Sequence record: MW749001.1
DNA from: Escherichia phage vB_EcoM_Kelasse
Length of the DNA: 64,000 nt
Reading direction: 5' to 3' (one strand)
The notes under the pieces were generated by a model that made no database searches, was not told the origin of the DNA, and worked only from the letters and a program-made list of their open reading frames with translations. How positions within the stretch are numbered: the stretch's first letter is position 1; every line of letters begins with the position of its first letter. Positions 43,681-49,934 of the stretch are shown here, one piece after another. A program made the translations under genes and the position numbers.

Positions 43681-44589
43681 TTAAGATTTAAGTAAATCGA
43701 CAATTTTAATTAACTTTTCACGCTCAGATTTAGCTTTACTACTCAATCCAGATAGTCTGAAAATTTCATCGTCATAATGTTGAATAGAAATATTCAGCTC
43801 TTCAATTTGCTTATTAAAATAATCAATTTGTTCAGAATGTTTTTCGTTACTACGAACTGGTACAGGTTTTGTAGGCAATTTAGTTAAACTGGATTCATCC
43901 GGGCGATAAATTAAAATGCAATTTGAACCAATCGGGCATTTAGCACCAGATGAATATTCTAACGTTCCAGCTTCTTTTAAAACTTCAAAAGCTAAACAGA
44001 GATGATGCCCCATATTAACATAATCTGTAGAGCGAGCTCTGACGTAATAATCATCGCCGCGAATACTAAATTTAAAGCATTTAAGGTCTTCTGTATTATT
44101 GGTCTTAAAAATCATTTGTTTATCTAGACCTTTAGCTAATCGAGCGCCTAATGCTAATAATCGTCGTTGATTTTCCCACAAATCTGCGATCATTTGGTCA
44201 AATGATAATTTCGGCATTAGTCGACCGTAAAGATCATAGCCTTTATTATAATTGCGAAGAATTTCACTTGCATTAATACGAGACAATGCTCCAATTTTAT
44301 TAAGGGCTTTCATAATGCGATTAGATAAACCCATTCCAGACCCGTTTGTTCGCTGTAAATGTTTTTCTAATCCAAATCCAATATCAACTTTAAACTTATC
44401 TAAAATTTCTGCATGAACATCTCTGTCAATAACATTCAAATCCAAAGTTGGGTTAAATCTATGAAAAAATTTATCTGGCTCTCCACGACGAAGTACAGTC
44501 CATTCATTCAATTTTTTATTAACTAAAGATTTAATTACTGCATTGACATTATTAATTACTACTGACATATTTTCCTCACTCAATTTCAA
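43681..44589 (-). CDS. hypothetical protein with C-terminal coiled coil (302 aa)
   Basis: ORF track; C-terminal heptad-rich region. Confidence 0.55.
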   Translation of the reverse strand: MKLSEENMSVVINNVNAVIKSLVNKKLNEWTVLRRGEPDKFFHRFNPTLDLNVIDRDVHAEILDKFKVDIGFGLEKHLQRTNGSGMGLSNRIMKALNKIGALSRINASEILRNYNKGYDLYGRLMPKLSFDQMIADLWENQRRLLALGARLAKGLDKQMIFKTNNTEDLKCFKFSIRGDDYYVRARSTDYVNMGHHLCLAFEVLKEAGTLEYSSGAKCPIGSNCILIYRPDESSLTKLPTKPVPVRSNEKHSEQIDYFNKQIEELNISIQHYDDEIFRLSGLSSKAKSEREKLIKIVDLLKS

Positions 44590-45038: not shown

Positions 45039-45626
45039 TTATGCGAGTACCGTCTTTAACCGTTCTTCAAACTTCCGAAGAGTATTCTGGCGTTCAGCTC
45101 TTTGCTTTTTGTAAGTTTCAATACGCTCTGAAATGAGAGTGTATCGTTCATTTACTGATTCTTTCATAAAATCAGGAATTTCACGAGAAGCTTTAATCTC
45201 GTCAAATTTATCAATAACAGCTTGCTCTTCAGCAATTAAGTTATCATACATCAAAATATCTTTCTTGATGAACTCAATATCTTCTTGAGTTACACGAGAT
45301 AATTTAGATGCTTTATCCTTTTTGTACTGTTCGTTAGTATCACGAGACCAGTGTAATGTACGATTTTTATTCGTATTTTTGTAAATTTCTACAATACCAA
45401 TCTCATCGATAATAACGATCCAATTCCAACGAGATTTGTAAATTTGTCCTCCATCAACCGTGATTTCACCTCCAATTGAGATGTCATTAAAGAACTTGCT
45501 TTGAGCTTCAGATTTAAATTTACCATCATTGTAGTTTACCAAGTTGAAAATATCTTTAGCATTCATTTTCTGTTCCTCCGTAGTTGATAGTTGTATAGTA
45601 CCACAGAGGAACGGTCTTGTAAACAA
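45039..45626 (-). CDS. hypothetical protein (true start probably near 45566, about 175 aa)
   Basis: Early promoter inside track N-terminus; GGAGGAA Shine-Dalgarno before internal MNAKDIF. Confidence 0.55.
   Translation of the reverse strand: MFTRPFLCGTIQLSTTEEQKMNAKDIFNLVNYNDGKFKSEAQSKFFNDISIGGEITVDGGQIYKSRWNWIVIIDEIGIVEIYKNTNKNRTLHWSRDTNEQYKKDKASKLSRVTQEDIEFIKKDILMYDNLIAEEQAVIDKFDEIKASREIPDFMKESVNERYTLISERIETYKKQRAERQNTLRKFEERLKTVLA
45595..45624 (-). promoter_or_regulatory. T4 early-type promoter
   Basis: Minus strand GTTTAC, 18 nt, TGGTACTAT. Confidence 0.5.
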
Positions 45627-45941
45627 CTAAAAGAAACTTCTTTCACAATTTTTTCCACTGAACCACGCGCTCACTGCTTTCTTAGTCTCAGGAGCAGTGT
45701 TATCCATAAACCATTCAAAGGCAGCCTTTTTATGATTCTGGAGGGCTTCTCGGGCTTTAATCTGCTCACGGTCTATTAACACTAACATATGAGCCTTTCT
45801 TGTCACCAAGGGCTTCTTATGATTTTTTGAATACTCCCAATCATTTGTCCATCGCATCGTTGTTGCGAACTGAAATACTGCTTCTTTAATTTTAGTTTCA
45901 TAAATTTCACGAGCCTTTGAGTATAACATCATTACCTCCAT
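45627..45941 (-). CDS. hypothetical protein (104 aa)
   Basis: ORF track. Confidence 0.5.
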   Translation of the reverse strand: MEVMMLYSKAREIYETKIKEAVFQFATTMRWTNDWEYSKNHKKPLVTRKAHMLVLIDREQIKAREALQNHKKAAFEWFMDNTAPETKKAVSAWFSGKNCERSFF

Positions 45942-46030: not shown

Positions 46031-46999
46031 TTATTTCAGAAGAGTAACCTCAGCGATTTCTTCCCAACCGTTTTTGTCGGTCATAATAAAGTCAGCAAGA
46101 TAAAGCGCAGTACGCAGTGAAACATTGCGTAAACGATTAACATTGACTTTCATCCATGATAATGCTTTATAAGTTTCTTCATCAGAAAGACCGCGCTTTT
46201 GCATCATGTCAGTTGAAAGAATAACATCTTCAACCCTAACCATAATTTCTTCATTAGTGTGAACACCCAAATCCAAATAAACTGAGCGGGACACTAATGC
46301 TTGTAAATGTGGAGCAAGTTTAGTACCACGATCTAATTCGCGGTCAATGTCAACGTTTGTGATAAAAACAATCGTTCCTTTAAATTCAAACTCACGCTCA
46401 ATGCCTTTTTCTTCTAAGTAAGAAGATGCGGTGCTCCAGCAGACTTTACGGGTCTCTCCGGTGTCCAGAGCAGCTTTCAGAAGATTAAGAATGTCCATAT
46501 CAGAGAAAACATCCACATCATCAATCAAAAGGACAGAATTCTCTTCACGATTATTCCAAAGCTGCTCATAAAGACCAATACCAGAGATTTTACCATTAAT
46601 GCTTTTATACTCAATGTATCCAATATCATTTGCTTTATTTAAAGCTTTATCTAAAGAATACGTTTTACCAATACCTGCTGCTCCCGAGATAATTAATGAA
46701 CGAATGTTTCCGTTAATAATACCATTCGTCATCATTCCCATAACATTAAATCTTTTATTAATGCGGGTTTTCATATCTTCATACGATTCTTTAACTTCTT
46801 CAACTTTTACACCATCATATGAAATGTCTGATTTGTAAACCCAAACACCGCGACGCTTACCGTCAATTTCAACAAAAACTTTACCATCTCCTTGTGCATC
46901 TACCGGAGCATTATCTGGGAACCATTCACCTAAGAGCTCAAAAGTTCCAGAGATTTCTTTGCCAAAGTAGATACCCTTATTGATAGTTACAGTTTTCAT
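46031..46999 (-). CDS. AAA+ ATPase with about 90-aa N-terminal domain
   Basis: Walker A GAAGIGKT, Walker B LLIDDVD, sensor-1-like FITN. Confidence 0.65.
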   Translation of the reverse strand: MKTVTINKGIYFGKEISGTFELLGEWFPDNAPVDAQGDGKVFVEIDGKRRGVWVYKSDISYDGVKVEEVKESYEDMKTRINKRFNVMGMMTNGIINGNIRSLIISGAAGIGKTYSLDKALNKANDIGYIEYKSINGKISGIGLYEQLWNNREENSVLLIDDVDVFSDMDILNLLKAALDTGETRKVCWSTASSYLEEKGIEREFEFKGTIVFITNVDIDRELDRGTKLAPHLQALVSRSVYLDLGVHTNEEIMVRVEDVILSTDMMQKRGLSDEETYKALSWMKVNVNRLRNVSLRTALYLADFIMTDKNGWEEIAEVTLLK

Positions 47000-47056
47000 T
47001 TTATTCTCCTTTGATTTGATAGGACTACTATAACATAATCCTATCAGTTTGTATAC

Positions 47057-47257
47057 TTATTTTGACATTTCTTCGATGTCACGACGATACCCGTCACGAA
47101 CTTCACGAAGAGCTTCAAGGCCACACATAGGCTCGATACCAGTAATGTGAACTTGATTAATCTGATACTCTACATCTTCTAACTGAGCGAAAACATAACG
47201 ACGTTCAGCTGCACAACCAGATTTAGCTTTACCGAAACGTTTATTCAAAGTAGTCAT
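47057..47257 (-). CDS. hypothetical protein (66 aa)
   Basis: ORF track. Confidence 0.45.
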   Translation of the reverse strand: MTTLNKRFGKAKSGCAAERRYVFAQLEDVEYQINQVHITGIEPMCGLEALREVRDGYRRDIEEMSK

Positions 47258-47344
47258 TTTGTATCTCCAATTTACTCATTTGTTTTGATAGTTGTATAGT
47301 ATACCATAAAGCTTTATGCTTGTAAACAACTTTGTGAAAAATTT

Positions 47345-47375
47345 TTGAAATAAAAAAGGGAGCCCGAAGGCCCCC
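47345..47375 (-). terminator. hairpin/terminator downstream of nucleotidyltransferase gene
   Basis: GGGGGCC-UUCG-GGCUCCC followed by U-tract. Confidence 0.55.
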
Positions 47376-47377
47376 TA

Positions 47378-48391
47378 TCATTTATAATAACTTCGGTGGT
47401 TTTCAAGATAAACCTGTTCGAGGAAATTATTCCAAAAGCTCATATCTACTGTTTTAGGCATACCATTCTTAGAAGCGTCAGTAGATGCTGCTTCTACTTG
47501 ATCGACCACATCTTCCAAAAACTCTTGAACTGTTTTAAATGGATGTTTACCCAACTTCACGTCGAGAATAAATGGAGCATCTTGGAGTGGATAAACCAAG
47601 TCACCAGTTTTGTAAATTTCCAATAGTTGAAGTCCACCACGACAAGCATGACTCAGAGCTTTCCAGTCAATACCTTCATTGGCTTCGGCCTTACGAGCAC
47701 GTTCACCATATTCAGCATCTAATTTGTTCAGTGACTGCTTAAGCTCAATAAGAGAAAGCGTTGTCTGATATTTACGACCCAATACAGTATAGAACGTTTG
47801 TGGACCTGTTTTCTCATGATTATGGAACACCCATTCACAGAATTCGTTTTCTGGAAGACGATGCTTAATATCTTCAACTTTAGTGCGACGCTGCTTAATA
47901 GAACCATCTTCTTGGTAATCAACCCATTGCTCGGGGATTTGATTAACTACTTTTAATACATCGCGTAATGCAGCCAAACGAGAACCCTTGACACCGTATT
48001 TAGAAGCTTGCTTGCGGACATATCCTAAATAGGATTTCATGTTAGTCGTATAAAAACGAGAACGGTTGTCTTGAATAAACTTCCACACGTCAGGCAAATC
48101 AGATTTAACCACTAGTTCAGGTGGAGTGTGAAGCATATCCAATGCTACAGTTTCACCATCTGCTGCTAATTTAAAGAAATATTTAAGACTGTATAGTTCA
48201 TGGTCAATATCATCTTTAGTGTTTTTAGATGATGTGTTGTTAGTGTTTTTACTCATGTGCTCTTTGACATTTCCGATAAGAATATCACGAGCAGGAGGAA
48301 CAAAAATTTCTTTAAAATCTACATCAGATTCTGGGGTAGAAGTTCCATAAAGATGACTACCAAAATAGCTTTTCATTACTGTTTTCATCAT
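47378..48391 (-). CDS. nucleotidyltransferase-fold protein (Pol-beta superfamily), 337 aa
   Basis: N-terminal FGSHLYGTSTPESDVDF matches the GS-x(9-13)-DxD nucleotidyltransferase signature; hairpin directly downstream. Confidence 0.6.
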   Translation of the reverse strand: MMKTVMKSYFGSHLYGTSTPESDVDFKEIFVPPARDILIGNVKEHMSKNTNNTSSKNTKDDIDHELYSLKYFFKLAADGETVALDMLHTPPELVVKSDLPDVWKFIQDNRSRFYTTNMKSYLGYVRKQASKYGVKGSRLAALRDVLKVVNQIPEQWVDYQEDGSIKQRRTKVEDIKHRLPENEFCEWVFHNHEKTGPQTFYTVLGRKYQTTLSLIELKQSLNKLDAEYGERARKAEANEGIDWKALSHACRGGLQLLEIYKTGDLVYPLQDAPFILDVKLGKHPFKTVQEFLEDVVDQVEAASTDASKNGMPKTVDMSFWNNFLEQVYLENHRSYYK

Positions 48392-48849
48392 TCAGCCTTA
48401 TATTCAATAACAGGACATACTTTAGCTTTACGAGCTTTTAAAAATTCAACGATAACCGATTTCTTGGGTTGAATAGGAGGTAAACCTTTATACGCCCTAT
48501 CAATATTTTCTACGTGTAAAGCATAATCCTTTTTCCATTTATAATCTTTATATTTTTCACGCAAATGTGCAGGAATAACAAATGAACCGATAATAAGTAA
48601 AACAACCAAAAGTGCAAGTATAAATGCCGATGGAAGAAGAGTCCATAAACTACCGAAAATAAGCCAACGTTGTAGGCTTTCTGCACAAATAATTGTTAGC
48701 CCTACGAGTATAGCACATCCAAAAATAGAAACGAAAAATGTAGGAATGGCAATAGACCAAAAATATGCGCATAGTGTCTTAGGTCGTTGCCATTCATCGT
48801 TAAACAATTTGAATAATTTATAGTGCCAAGAGTTTTCATTAATAATCAT
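48388..48849 (-). CDS. multi-pass membrane protein (153 aa)
   Basis: Three to four hydrophobic segments. Confidence 0.55.
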   Translation of the reverse strand: MIINENSWHYKLFKLFNDEWQRPKTLCAYFWSIAIPTFFVSIFGCAILVGLTIICAESLQRWLIFGSLWTLLPSAFILALLVVLLIIGSFVIPAHLREKYKDYKWKKDYALHVENIDRAYKGLPPIQPKKSVIVEFLKARKAKVCPVIEYKAE

Positions 48850-48851
48850 AA

Positions 48852-49373
48852 TTATCCTTTCATTGAAGGCGTAACAGTTGTTAAATACTTAATCATAGCT
48901 TCAGCTTCTGATTTTGATAATGAAATTTCTCCATTGTTTTGACGAATAGAAATAAAATCCGGATGACGGTCACCACCAGCTTTTAAAACACACATATAAG
49001 TATCAACTTCGCCTTCAATATTTGAAATGATTGAAGCAGTTCCACATGAATGCGGTTTTTGATAAATCAATACAGCTTTTCTTCCGCCATTTGACTGTTC
49101 ATAAACTTTTAATACATCAAACAAATCAGTTCTTTTATCAATAGCTAAAATGTTATTTTCATCTTCAATGTTAAATCCTTCGGATACTTCATAAAGTGTC
49201 ACCCATAAATCGCCAATATCAATAACAGCGTTCACTTTTCCATGACTTTCAAGAGCATGACAAATTTTCTTGATTTCGTCATAACTCATTTTAATAATAT
49301 CATCTCCTTGAATAAGAAAGATGTCATTTTTAAATTCAACACGAATTAAACCACTTCCACTTGAAATAAACAT
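48852..49373 (-). CDS. hypothetical protein, tandem paralog (173 aa)
   Basis: C-terminus SKSEAEAMIKYLTTVTPSM resembles neighbour. Confidence 0.55.
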   Translation of the reverse strand: MFISSGSGLIRVEFKNDIFLIQGDDIIKMSYDEIKKICHALESHGKVNAVIDIGDLWVTLYEVSEGFNIEDENNILAIDKRTDLFDVLKVYEQSNGGRKAVLIYQKPHSCGTASIISNIEGEVDTYMCVLKAGGDRHPDFISIRQNNGEISLSKSEAEAMIKYLTTVTPSMKG

Positions 49374-49379
49374 ATTTCC

Positions 49380-49934
49380 TCACTTTGAAATCATAGTTGG
49401 AATGACAGAATCAAGATAAGTCTTTAGTGCAATAGCTTCGTCTTTGGTAAATGTGACAATATGTGCTCGAGAATCATCAATTTGGCGAACAAGTACGACA
49501 TCGCCATCTTCATAAGAAGTCTTGACATCCAAAGTCGTAGTATAATTTGCAGCTACTGGATTAATAATGCTAGCACCGCGATCTTTAGCCCATTGAAGTT
49601 TAGCCTTTTCGGGTGTTTCGACTGTTTCAGATTCCAAGAATTCTTTCACCTTGGCAACGAATGTTGCCCAATTGTTGATAGAAAGACACATAAATTCAGT
49701 TTCAATATTACCGCCGTAAAGGCCACGATAAAAACGAACTTGGAGGTCGCCTGTAATATTAGTTACACCGGTAACTCCTGAGGGAGCATAAGATAAAATC
49801 GCAGCCAGTTCCATAGGAAGAATAGTAATACTATCGTCTTCCTGCGTCAGAACGTATACATTACCGCGTTTTTCGATAACTAGGTCACCGAACAAATCAG
49901 TTGTTTCAATTACAGCTTTCATATTATTTACCAA
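49380..49934 (-). CDS. hypothetical protein, tandem paralog (184 aa)
   Basis: C-terminus TKDEAIALKTYLDSVIPTM resembles neighbour. Confidence 0.55.
   Translation of the reverse strand: MVNNMKAVIETTDLFGDLVIEKRGNVYVLTQEDDSITILPMELAAILSYAPSGVTGVTNITGDLQVRFYRGLYGGNIETEFMCLSINNWATFVAKVKEFLESETVETPEKAKLQWAKDRGASIINPVAANYTTTLDVKTSYEDGDVVLVRQIDDSRAHIVTFTKDEAIALKTYLDSVIPTMISK

Follow-up and report, generated by a model that had tools for sequence, protein, structure and literature searches.

NrdC.11 of a T4-like Escherichia phage, a long-form RlaP-family nucleotidyltransferase with a putative role in RNA 3'-end repair, neighbours the AAA+ ATPase NrdC.10 by synteny

The 337-aa nucleotidyltransferase (NTase) of Escherichia phage vB_EcoM_Kelasse is an orthologue of T4 NrdC.11 and a long form of the RlaP family. 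With a probability of roughly 60%, we read it as an early counter-defence enzyme that repairs RNA 3' ends and that has the nearby AAA+ ATPase, the NrdC.10 orthologue, as a neighbour by synteny only. The RNA substrate, the addition of one or two nucleotides and a role against RloC are suggested by published work on bacterial RlaPs and by the gene neighbourhoods of the NrdC.11 clade. A sequence-only reading of the window (the whole 64,000-nt stretch analyzed, from record MW749001.1) had offered RNA tailing, protein modification and a nucleotide signal as functions for the NTase. Our analysis favours RNA 3'-end tailing, while the other two were rated lower. The repair hypothesis itself has been put forward before (Burroughs & Aravind 2016; Iyer et al. 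2021; Carruthers et al. 2025), so the window adds a confirmed orthologue and supporting context rather than a new idea.

By megablast the window is 98% identical in DNA sequence to Tequatrovirus genomes and thus belongs to a T4-like phage, and comparison with the T4 map showed that the region corresponds to the nrdC-to-rI block of T4, where the sequence-only reading had placed it. Both previously noted open reading frames are present (Table 1). In tblastn searches the 337-aa protein was 96.7% identical to T4 NrdC.11 (NP_049709) over its full length, and the 322-aa protein was 99.4% identical to T4 NrdC.10. The two proteins are orthologues of these T4 proteins and not a new two-gene system. The novelty implied earlier did not hold, as both orthologues and their assignments are already known: COG3541 nucleotidyltransferase for NrdC.11 and AAA ATPase for NrdC.10 were published in 2006 (PMC1524935), the RefSeq label of T4 NrdC.11 is ‘nucleotidyltransferase’, and this protein was named as a member of RlaP cluster 5 in 2025 (PMC12776372, Carruthers et al. 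2025 preprint). The possibility had been raised that the gene is an already characterised T4 gene with a different function; it is indeed a known T4 gene, yet its assignment there agrees with an NTase. The T4 gene holds the same nrdC-rI map position and is followed by the same terminator and promoter. However, in T4 a mobD homing endonuclease lies upstream of NrdC.11 where the Kelasse phage carries the 153-aa membrane protein, and the 66-aa ORF that precedes nrdC.10 in the Kelasse phage is lacking.

Table 1. Predicted genes and transcription signals between positions 46,031 and 48,849 of the window
Feature	Coordinates	Strand	Details	Basis
NrdC.10 orthologue, AAA+ ATPase	46031..46999	-	322 aa	ORF, homology
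Hairpin between 66-aa ORF and nrdC.10	47017..47046	-	12 bp; -15.4 kcal/mol, z -5.6	
66-aa ORF	47057..47257	-	phrog_6200; between promoter and nrdC.10; absent from T4	ORF
T4-early-type sigma-70 promoter	47298..47326	-	TTTACA, 17 nt, TG-n-TATACT	Scan, 10/12 matches with TG
Intrinsic terminator	47347..47376	-	GGGGGCC-UUCG-GGCUCCC then U-run; -15.3 kcal/mol	Scan, folding
NrdC.11 orthologue, RlaP-family (PF10127) Pol-beta-fold nucleotidyltransferase	47378..48391	-	337 aa	ORF, homology
Predicted membrane protein	48388..48849	-	153 aa; phrog_944	ORF, phrog match

The NTase motif FGSHLYGTSTPESDVDF consists of G11-S12, ten residues and then D23-V-D25, in keeping with the GS-x(9-13)-DxD pattern recognized from the sequence. 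A match to PF10127 (RlaP), invariant residues and the predicted fold all argue against a chance occurrence. At 43.9 bits (E 3.2e-11) the Pfam match exceeds the gathering score of 23; it covers residues 7-135 of the protein, corresponding to only positions 23-142 of the 249 in the model. All listed homologues carry a precomputed PF10127 assignment. Residues G11, S12, D23, D25 and D63 are invariant among 82 relatives, down to 34% identity. An AF2 model with a pLDDT of 93.3 comprises an NTase core at approximately residues 1-113 and helices at 119-151, then a beta insert (155-209), and ends in a helical bundle (214-336). Within the core the GS follows strand 3-10 and the DxD opens strand 24-31, which is the placement, at a strand-helix-strand junction, of the Pol-beta superfamily motif hG[GS]-x(9-13)-Dh[DE]h, and Foldseek searches found the predicted fold to resemble solved Pol-beta NTases. 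The profile and structure predictions that had been proposed as a check therefore confirmed an NTase fold for the GS/DxD segment. Also upheld was the view that the protein has the size of a two-domain enzyme: the evidence supports a multi-domain Pol-beta-superfamily nucleotidyltransferase and not a minimal antitoxin of the MNT/MntA-HEPN type, which would have around 100–150 aa and an adjacent HEPN toxin gene, neither of which applies here. Direct sequence searches of PDB chains gave no useful solved relative of either protein, and a profile of the 82 relatives found none for NrdC.11 in the PDB.

The third acidic residue had earlier been sought in ALDMLH (D85), which sits in helix 81-87, is conserved only to about 90% and was rejected. 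D63 is the better candidate, as it is invariant, lies on strand 62-68 in the AF2 model, i.e. on a neighbouring beta strand as a third carboxylate should, and in hhalign aligns with the invariant third Asp (D72) of canonical RlaPs. In the same alignment D85 pairs with a conserved Glu (E94) of the RlaP helix motif. The predicted catalytic residues are thus likely to be G11-S12, D23, D25 and D63.

Within the window, a canonical RlaP profile matched only the NTase ORF (E 3e-6). Comparison with canonical RlaP in hhalign gave 95.6% (E 1.2e-8) with GS and DxD aligned, over a span of only 83 N-terminal columns. NrdC.11 shares with RlaP the GS, the DxD, the third Asp, the helix motif [N/E]xxxx[E/D] further downstream and, probably, an architecture of NTase plus helical domain; a C-terminal helical domain is present in the AF2 model. 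In canonical RlaP a C-terminal helix also packs back on the NTase domain. The Pfam match lies above threshold, and cellular members of the NrdC.11 clade are found in RtcB, Pnkp/Hen1 and Ro60 operons. However, NrdC.11 is about 80 aa longer and contains the beta insert, and its C-terminal region does not align to the short form. Alignment to canonical RlaP is limited to the N-terminal 83-130 residues and the C-terminal two-thirds, including the beta insert, are specific to the clade, so that the substrate of NrdC.11 could differ. NrdC.11 also belongs to a sequence cluster other than that of the assayed short-form PfRlaP and PaRlaP from Pseudomonas, and its gene in phages does not lie next to a ligase gene. 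Those two enzymes add 1-2 NMP onto an RNA 3'-OH, prefer nicked-tRNA mimics, and labelled RNA but not DNA or E. coli proteins (PMC12776372); the preprint also describes a crystal structure of PfRlaP. The published RlaP repair model has difficulties of its own, for instance that the product carries a 3'-OH whereas RtcB requires a 3'-phosphate.

The gene neighbourhoods of full-length NrdC.11 relatives (33-53% identity) were analyzed at 80 cellular loci, counting RtcB, Pnkp-type kinase-phosphatase-ligase, Hen1, TROVE/Ro60 and canonical (short) RlaP as RNA-repair genes. Such a gene, confirmed by Pfam, was located within 6 kb in 24 of the 80 loci, and in 16 of the 48 with at least 3 kb of sequence on both sides. 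The long form of RlaP is frequently found next to short RlaP in bacteria, suggesting that the long form is non-redundant and possibly has a different activity. Among 79 viral loci, the only RNA ligase or repair gene within 10 kb of the NTase was RtcB, in two loci, and no RNA repair gene was found within the window.

When the NTase model was searched with Foldseek against a PDB set without PfRlaP, the closest solved fold was HalB of Hailong, followed by aminoglycoside and protein nucleotidyltransferases. HalB is described in a 2026 review as a protein-primed poly-dA synthase, and NrdC.11 could by analogy synthesise oligo- or poly-dA, or another free oligonucleotide, with no template and possibly from a protein primer, perhaps mimicking or replenishing a host immune signal. 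We regard this as highly improbable. Identity to HalB (PDB 9dbh/9dbj) is 15% at a Foldseek E of about 0.01, the NrdC.11-clade profile has no sequence match to HalB, PADLOC returned no match, and Pfam, hhalign and the RNA-repair neighbourhoods point to RlaP instead; furthermore, the assayed RlaPs need an RNA 3'-OH primer and add only 1-2 nt. The first rank of HalB may only reflect that PfRlaP is missing from the PDB set. HalB measures 217 aa, against 337 aa for NrdC.11, and has the HalA channel as its partner; no HalA-like partner was seen at the NrdC.11 locus. A more specific version, in which NrdC.11 is a HalB analogue whose free or protein-primed oligo-dA, made during infection, replaces an inhibitory DNA signal destroyed by phage exonucleases and thereby keeps a HalA-type channel shut, would mean counter-defence through immune-signal mimicry and not RNA repair, and strikes us as scarcely credible.

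That NrdC.11 nucleotidylylates a protein or a small molecule, either by AMPylation as in MntA, DrrA and GlnE or by adenylylation of the antibiotic type as in KNTase/ANT, is unlikely. The fold matches to these groups are those of generic Pol-beta proteins at 8-13% identity, the NCBIfam MntA match reaches 13.2 bits where the cut-off is 60, no HEPN gene is adjacent, and the assayed RlaPs labelled RNA rather than E. coli proteins, with the clade residing in RNA-repair operons. Kanamycin and aminoglycoside NTases (1kny, 6nlt) and the NTase-like 3c18 are 9-10% identical to NrdC.11, show no family-level sequence match and occur in other gene contexts. Signalling enzymes resembling cGAS/CD-NTases or OAS, CCA-adding enzymes and poly(A)/poly(U) polymerases share with NrdC.11 the superfamily motif GS...DxD only. 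Pfam did not link NrdC.11 to the CD-NTase, OAS, PolyA_pol or PAP families, and PADLOC gave no match; neither a cGAS/DncV-like CD-NTase/OAS model or fold with linkage to a CBASS-type effector, nor in Pfam the head-neck domains of the CCA/PolyA_pol/PAP type, were found; and Cid1 and TUT7 were retrieved by Foldseek at E 0.1-0.4 with a probability of at most 0.1. We give such an activity next to no credence.

As an RNA 3'-end repair enzyme, NrdC.11 would be metal-dependent and template-independent, extending the 3'-OH of broken RNA, and especially of tRNA halves, by one or two nucleotides. D23, D25 and D63 would hold two metals, with the cleft for RNA and NTP provided by the helical C-terminal part. 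In infection by T4-like phages the enzyme may supplement the phage tRNA repair pathway of Pnk and RNA ligase, replacing, ahead of religation, the nucleotides that RloC or similar host anticodon nucleases have trimmed away; phage RlaPs have been predicted to restore nucleotides lost through RloC-type nucleases (PMC7824862). The gene would be an early-expressed, accessory counter-defence gene, the accessory status being suggested by the fact that the nrdC.11-mobD.3 block of T4 can be deleted (PMC9825161). If wobble nucleotides are indeed restored in this manner, NrdC.11 would complete the classic T4 Pnk/Rnl1 tRNA-repair pathway and would explain how T4-like phages could escape nucleases thought to be ‘repair-proof’, for example the wobble-excising RloC.

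The transcription signals around the two genes were also analyzed. The TGA stop of the 153-aa gene overlaps the ATG of the NTase gene (ATGA), owing to which the NTase is probably translationally coupled to, as well as co-transcribed with, this upstream gene. The terminator hairpin, at 47357..47376, begins one base past the NTase stop and is predicted to close the NTase transcription unit. It is annotated as a terminator in KAW1E185, and the Kelasse version differs from those of T4 and KAW1E185 by one base in the 5' arm of the stem. The early promoter is the best site in the region and is kept in T4, where it stands directly ahead of nrdC.10; in the Kelasse phage it is predicted to start the next unit, comprising the 66-aa ORF and nrdC.10. 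The sequence-only reading had given the pair its own promoter-like and hairpin signals, but both of these sit between the two genes, and a terminator followed by an early promoter splits them into separate transcription units. From these signals, the NTase would be the last gene of one unit and the ATPase would lie in the next, behind its own early promoter. The ATPase had been placed two genes downstream; it is downstream, but with one credible intervening gene, the 66-aa ORF, and none in T4. A 46-aa ORF (47241..47381) was rejected as a gene, being composed of the terminator hairpin and the promoter and unannotated in every relative. The hairpin ahead of nrdC.10 was equalled in folding by none of 200 shuffled sequences and is kept in KAW1E185, yet it is not a canonical terminator because a U-run is absent. 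In PADLOC and NCBIfam, the NTase, the ATPase, the 66-aa ORF and the 153-aa ORF were all without a meaningful match.

Could the two proteins nonetheless form a dedicated two-component system, in which the ATPase, for example, remodels or delivers the NTase substrate? T4 has the two genes next to each other, in the same orientation and order, as do all 9 close T4-like viral loci found through the ATPase and 24 loci found through the NTase; across Straboviridae both genes are common, with 1504 and 1311 phage records. However, the terminator and early promoter that part them are conserved, also in T4, and the spacing ranges from approximately 0.01 to 2.3 kb, unrelated genes having entered the gap. 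Fewer than a third of the viral NTase loci (24 of 79) contain the ATPase. It is missing from five loci where the NTase is still 82% or 69% identical, from all but one of the 40 loci at or below 50% identity, and from every one of the 80 cellular loci. Conversely, 34 of the 43 viral ATPase loci have no NTase within 10 kb and 9 do, and on one phage contig the two genes lie about 39 kb from each other. Neighbour clustering across the 43 viral loci revealed no conserved partner of NrdC.10 beyond close T4-like synteny. A dedicated system is accordingly very unlikely in our judgement. Neither linkage across divergent lineages nor a single operon was observed, and because co-localisation is confined almost entirely to close T4-like relatives the genes are not a module; they are neighbours by lineage-specific synteny only, and the functional pairing suggested earlier is not sustained.

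The assignment of the neighbour as an AAA+ ATPase was corroborated by motifs, AF2 model and Foldseek. Walker A reads GAAGIGKT at residues 106-113 and Walker B reads LLIDDVD at 156-162, as described, and the protein is laid out as a beta domain at the N-terminus (1-61), Walker A with K112, Walker B with D160-D161 and a C-terminal helical lid. G106-T113, D160-D161, the sensor-1 residue N215, R238 and R296 are invariant among 23 relatives. Every match to the Pfam AAA families fell under its gathering score. The AF2 model (pLDDT 89.8) has an alpha-beta-alpha core plus helical lid and retrieved AAA+ structures in Foldseek, including RuvB, NSF/Sec18, PspF, dynein, ORC/Cdc6, RFC and Hda (E around 1e-5, TM around 0.4), with probabilities of 0.98-1.0 for the leading matches (RuvB, NSF/Sec18, PspF, dynein, ORC and RFC). 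The model and motifs thus mark the 322-aa protein as a genuine, very highly conserved AAA+ ATPase. It shares the canonical core and lid, Walker A and B, sensor 1 and conserved arginines with generic AAA+ proteins (RuvB, NSF/Sec18 D domains, PspF/NtrC1, dynein modules, ORC/Cdc6, RFC and Hda), among which no clade stands out at 12-19% identity, but differs from them in possessing a private N-terminal beta domain.

The two ORFs singled out in the sequence-only reading were recovered in the ORF list with their quoted motifs, within a long run of co-oriented genes on the minus strand. The 337-aa nucleotidyltransferase (NTase) begins with MMKTVMKSYFGSHLYGTSTPESDVDF, and the 322-aa ATPase contains GAAGIGKT and LLIDDVD. 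Many Tequatrovirus genomes match this 3-kb stretch at 97–98% identity, vB_EcoM_KAW1E185 being the top match. In the T4 reference map, nrdC.11 and nrdC.10 lie in identical order in the nrdC-to-rI block, and identity to the T4 products is 96.7% for NrdC.11, annotated there as "nucleotidyltransferase", and 99.4% for NrdC.10. Both are T4 genes already known, with published family assignments: an AAA ATPase match was reported for nrdC.10, kept in only 3 of 6 T4-like genomes, and a COG3541 nucleotidyltransferase match for nrdC.11 (Nolan et al. 2006, PMC1524935). The original proposal was to be withdrawn if the gene proved an already characterised T4 gene; since the gene is known, its family assigned and its function in T4 predicted, this reservation applies in part. 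A T4 deletion of nrdC.11-mobD.3 is viable (PMC9825161).

Coordinates of the two genes and of neighbouring or related features (window positions, except for the two distant phage loci)
Feature	Coordinates	Strand	Basis or remark
337-aa ORF (NTase, NrdC.11)	47378..48391	-	ORF list
322-aa ORF (ATPase, NrdC.10)	46031..46999	-	ORF list
66-aa ORF (phrog_6200) and hairpin	47017..47257		Inserted between early promoter and nrdC.10
Tandem paralogues, T4 y05I/MobD.1-type 'putative transcription factor'	48852..49373, 49380..49934		Pfam T4_y05I_N, T4_y05I_C
NrdC.9 orthologue	45627..45941		Pfam DUF7203, E 2.8e-15
ORFs downstream of NrdC.9	45039..45626, 43681..44589		PHROG families only, no Pfam match
NAD-salvage context, distant phage locus L095	6445..7584
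NAD-salvage context, distant phage locus L103	11745..13313

The NTase-fold interpretation of the 337-aa protein was correct, as judged from its Pfam RlaP match (43.9 bits against a cut-off of 23, residues 7–135), the invariance of the motif residues and the predicted fold. PHROGs likewise assigned it to phrog_388, "nucleotidyltransferase" (E 2.7e-138). Searched exhaustively, 1.84 billion cluster representatives yielded 3496 relatives, including 828 at E ≤ 1e-30, with full-length matches in most of the best 150. When 82 relatives, the most distant at 34% identity, were aligned, the invariant positions were G11, S12, S22, D23, D25, N57, D63, Y132, R231, K244, H248, R251, P268 and K279. The AlphaFold model built from this alignment is confident (pLDDT 93.3, pTM 0.81) and comprises a beta-alpha-beta NTase core, helices at 119–151, a beta insert at 155–209 and a helical C-terminal domain at 214–336, which in a fold search was also matched by HEPN-like four-helix bundles. 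Foldseek returned the same families as the other fold search, but with weak E-values (0.01–0.1), Cid1 and TUT7 being marginal matches. The suggestion of a signalling enzyme was not supported: cGAS/CD-NTase, OAS and CCA-adding enzymes were all missing from the fold-match lists, and a PADLOC scan of the NTase gave no match.

Eight canonical short RlaPs were aligned for comparison, one representative of which matched Pfam RlaP at E 5.9e-81. Profile-profile comparison with the NrdC.11 clade (95.6% probability, E 1.2e-8, 83 columns) lined up the GS and DxD motifs and paired D63 with the invariant D72 of the canonical proteins. D85, which the sequence-only reading had put forward as the third acidic residue, was rejected in that role: it pairs with E94, an invariant residue in the "N....E" helix motif of RlaPs, lies in a helix in the model and is nearly, not fully, invariant among the 82 relatives. 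From alignment and model, D63 is the more likely third catalytic carboxylate, because it aligns with D72, is placed on a strand, and three strictly conserved aspartates are reported for the RlaP family (PMC12776372). Past about residue 95 the two groups do not align, and on this comparison NrdC.11 is thus placed in a sub-clade of long-form proteins, with a substrate-binding part predicted to be peculiar to it.

Two Pseudomonas RlaPs were characterised in a December 2025 preprint, which explicitly counts T4 NrdC.11 in the family (similarity-network cluster 5). They extend RNA 3'-OH ends, not DNA or protein, by one or two nucleotides (NMP or dNMP), prefer Mn2+, act preferentially at the nicked-anticodon end when given a tRNA mimic, and can partly rescue the aminoacylation of a tRNA lacking one nucleotide (PMC12776372). 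Phage RlaPs have been predicted to replace nucleotides cut by RloC-like nucleases before ligation (Iyer et al. 2021, PMC7824862), and the Pnk/Rnl1 tRNA-repair system of T4 is established (restated in PMC12776372). When one genome per prokaryotic species was scanned, 80 cellular loci with full-length NrdC.11 relatives (33–53% identity) were found, mainly in Desulfobacterales, Nitrospirota and Alphaproteobacteria. Clustering of neighbours, followed by Pfam confirmation, gave five recurrent types. One is a canonical short RlaP encoded immediately downstream; the others are RtcB, Hen1, a TROVE/Ro60 protein and a Pnkp-type kinase-phosphatase-Rnl1-like ligase. At least one of the five lies within 6 kb in 24 of the 80 loci (BLAST, single seeds), and in 16 of the 48 loci flanked on both sides by 3 kb or more of sequence. 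We infer from the rarity of these genes that this frequency is far above chance. The cellular neighbourhoods tie the NrdC.11 sub-clade itself, beyond PF10127 generally, to RNA repair, and of the functions listed at the outset RNA 3'-end tailing is the best supported, as a predicted repair activity. In phages the linkage to repair genes is not by adjacency: only 2 of the 79 viral NTase loci have RtcB inside 10 kb, and the 64-kb window contains no RNA-repair genes. The T4 Pnk/Rnl1 genes map elsewhere in the genome.

In bacterial RNA-repair operons the long-form NTase adjoins a short (~250 aa) RlaP, often 3–50 bp away; both occur within 6 kb in 12 cellular loci (L143, L155, L160, L180, L191 and L195 among them), an arrangement suggesting that one repair pathway employs two NTases that are not redundant. 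NAD-salvage genes, namely a Nudix-domain protein with a possible NMN-adenylyltransferase N-terminus and a NAMPT/NAPRTase-family enzyme, lie near the NrdC.11-type gene in about 9–11 distant viral loci; this proximity may be synteny only.

The NTase and ATPase had been proposed as a pair with its own promoter-like and hairpin signals. Such signals exist, but they lie between the two genes and separate them. One base past the NTase stop is a hairpin whose GC-rich stem of 8 bp carries a UUCG loop and is followed by a U-run (-15.3 kcal/mol); ~30 nt further comes the region's best promoter match (TTTACA, 17 nt, TG-n-TATACT, T4 early type). T4 keeps both the terminator, its stem differing by one base, and the promoter. 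The ATPase, said to lie two genes downstream, is separated by a single gene, the 66-aa ORF, which follows the promoter and precedes nrdC.10. KAW1E185 shares this ORF and the strong 12-bp hairpin after it (no U-run, -15.4 kcal/mol, z -5.6); T4 has neither, and its promoter directly abuts the 5' side of nrdC.10. The NTase start codon and the stop of an upstream 153-aa membrane-protein gene overlap (ATGA), so the NTase is predicted to belong to the upstream unit. An NrdC.11-type gene was found by HMM search within 10 kb in only 9 of 43 viral NrdC.10 loci, the nine closest, and the ATPase lies downstream of the NTase, at variable distance, in 24 of 79 viral NrdC.11 loci. Of these 79, certain loci whose NTase is 82% or 69% identical lack the ATPase, as do 39 of the 40 at ≤50%; in one contig the genes are ~39 kb apart, and none of the 80 cellular loci carries the ATPase. 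GenBank phage records number 1504 for the NTase and 1311 for the ATPase, with differing genus profiles. The adjacency is therefore within-lineage synteny, not a conserved module, and the proposed pair is not supported.

NrdC.10 relatives are strongly conserved: the 23 sequences aligned (55–89% identity) share without exception the Walker A motif, Walker B (DD), N215, R238, R296 and many positions of the lid. The model (pLDDT 89.8) has an N-terminal beta domain, linker helix, AAA+ core and helical lid. Foldseek scored RuvB, NSF/Sec18, PspF/NtrC1, dynein modules, ORC/Cdc6, RFC and Hda near-equally (E ~1e-5, TM ~0.4), and every match to Pfam AAA families fell under the gathering score; on the model the AAA+ fold is certain, with no clade singled out by the near-equal scores. 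No conserved neighbour of NrdC.10 was found across lineages. At ≥99% amino-acid identity there are 482 phage records for the ATPase versus 19 for the NTase, and this far higher conservation suggests strong constraint on NrdC.10.

In many GenBank phage records, orthologues of NrdC.10 and NrdC.11 carry the name 'thioredoxin', which seems to have spread from the nrdC.x locus names, and some mobD.x genes are called 'molybdopterin-guanine dinucleotide biosynthesis protein MobD'; Pfam and annotation comparison gave no sequence support here for either label. In the region 48388..49934, which also contains the two tandem paralogues, the 153-aa membrane protein sits where T4 carries the mobD HNH homing endonuclease.
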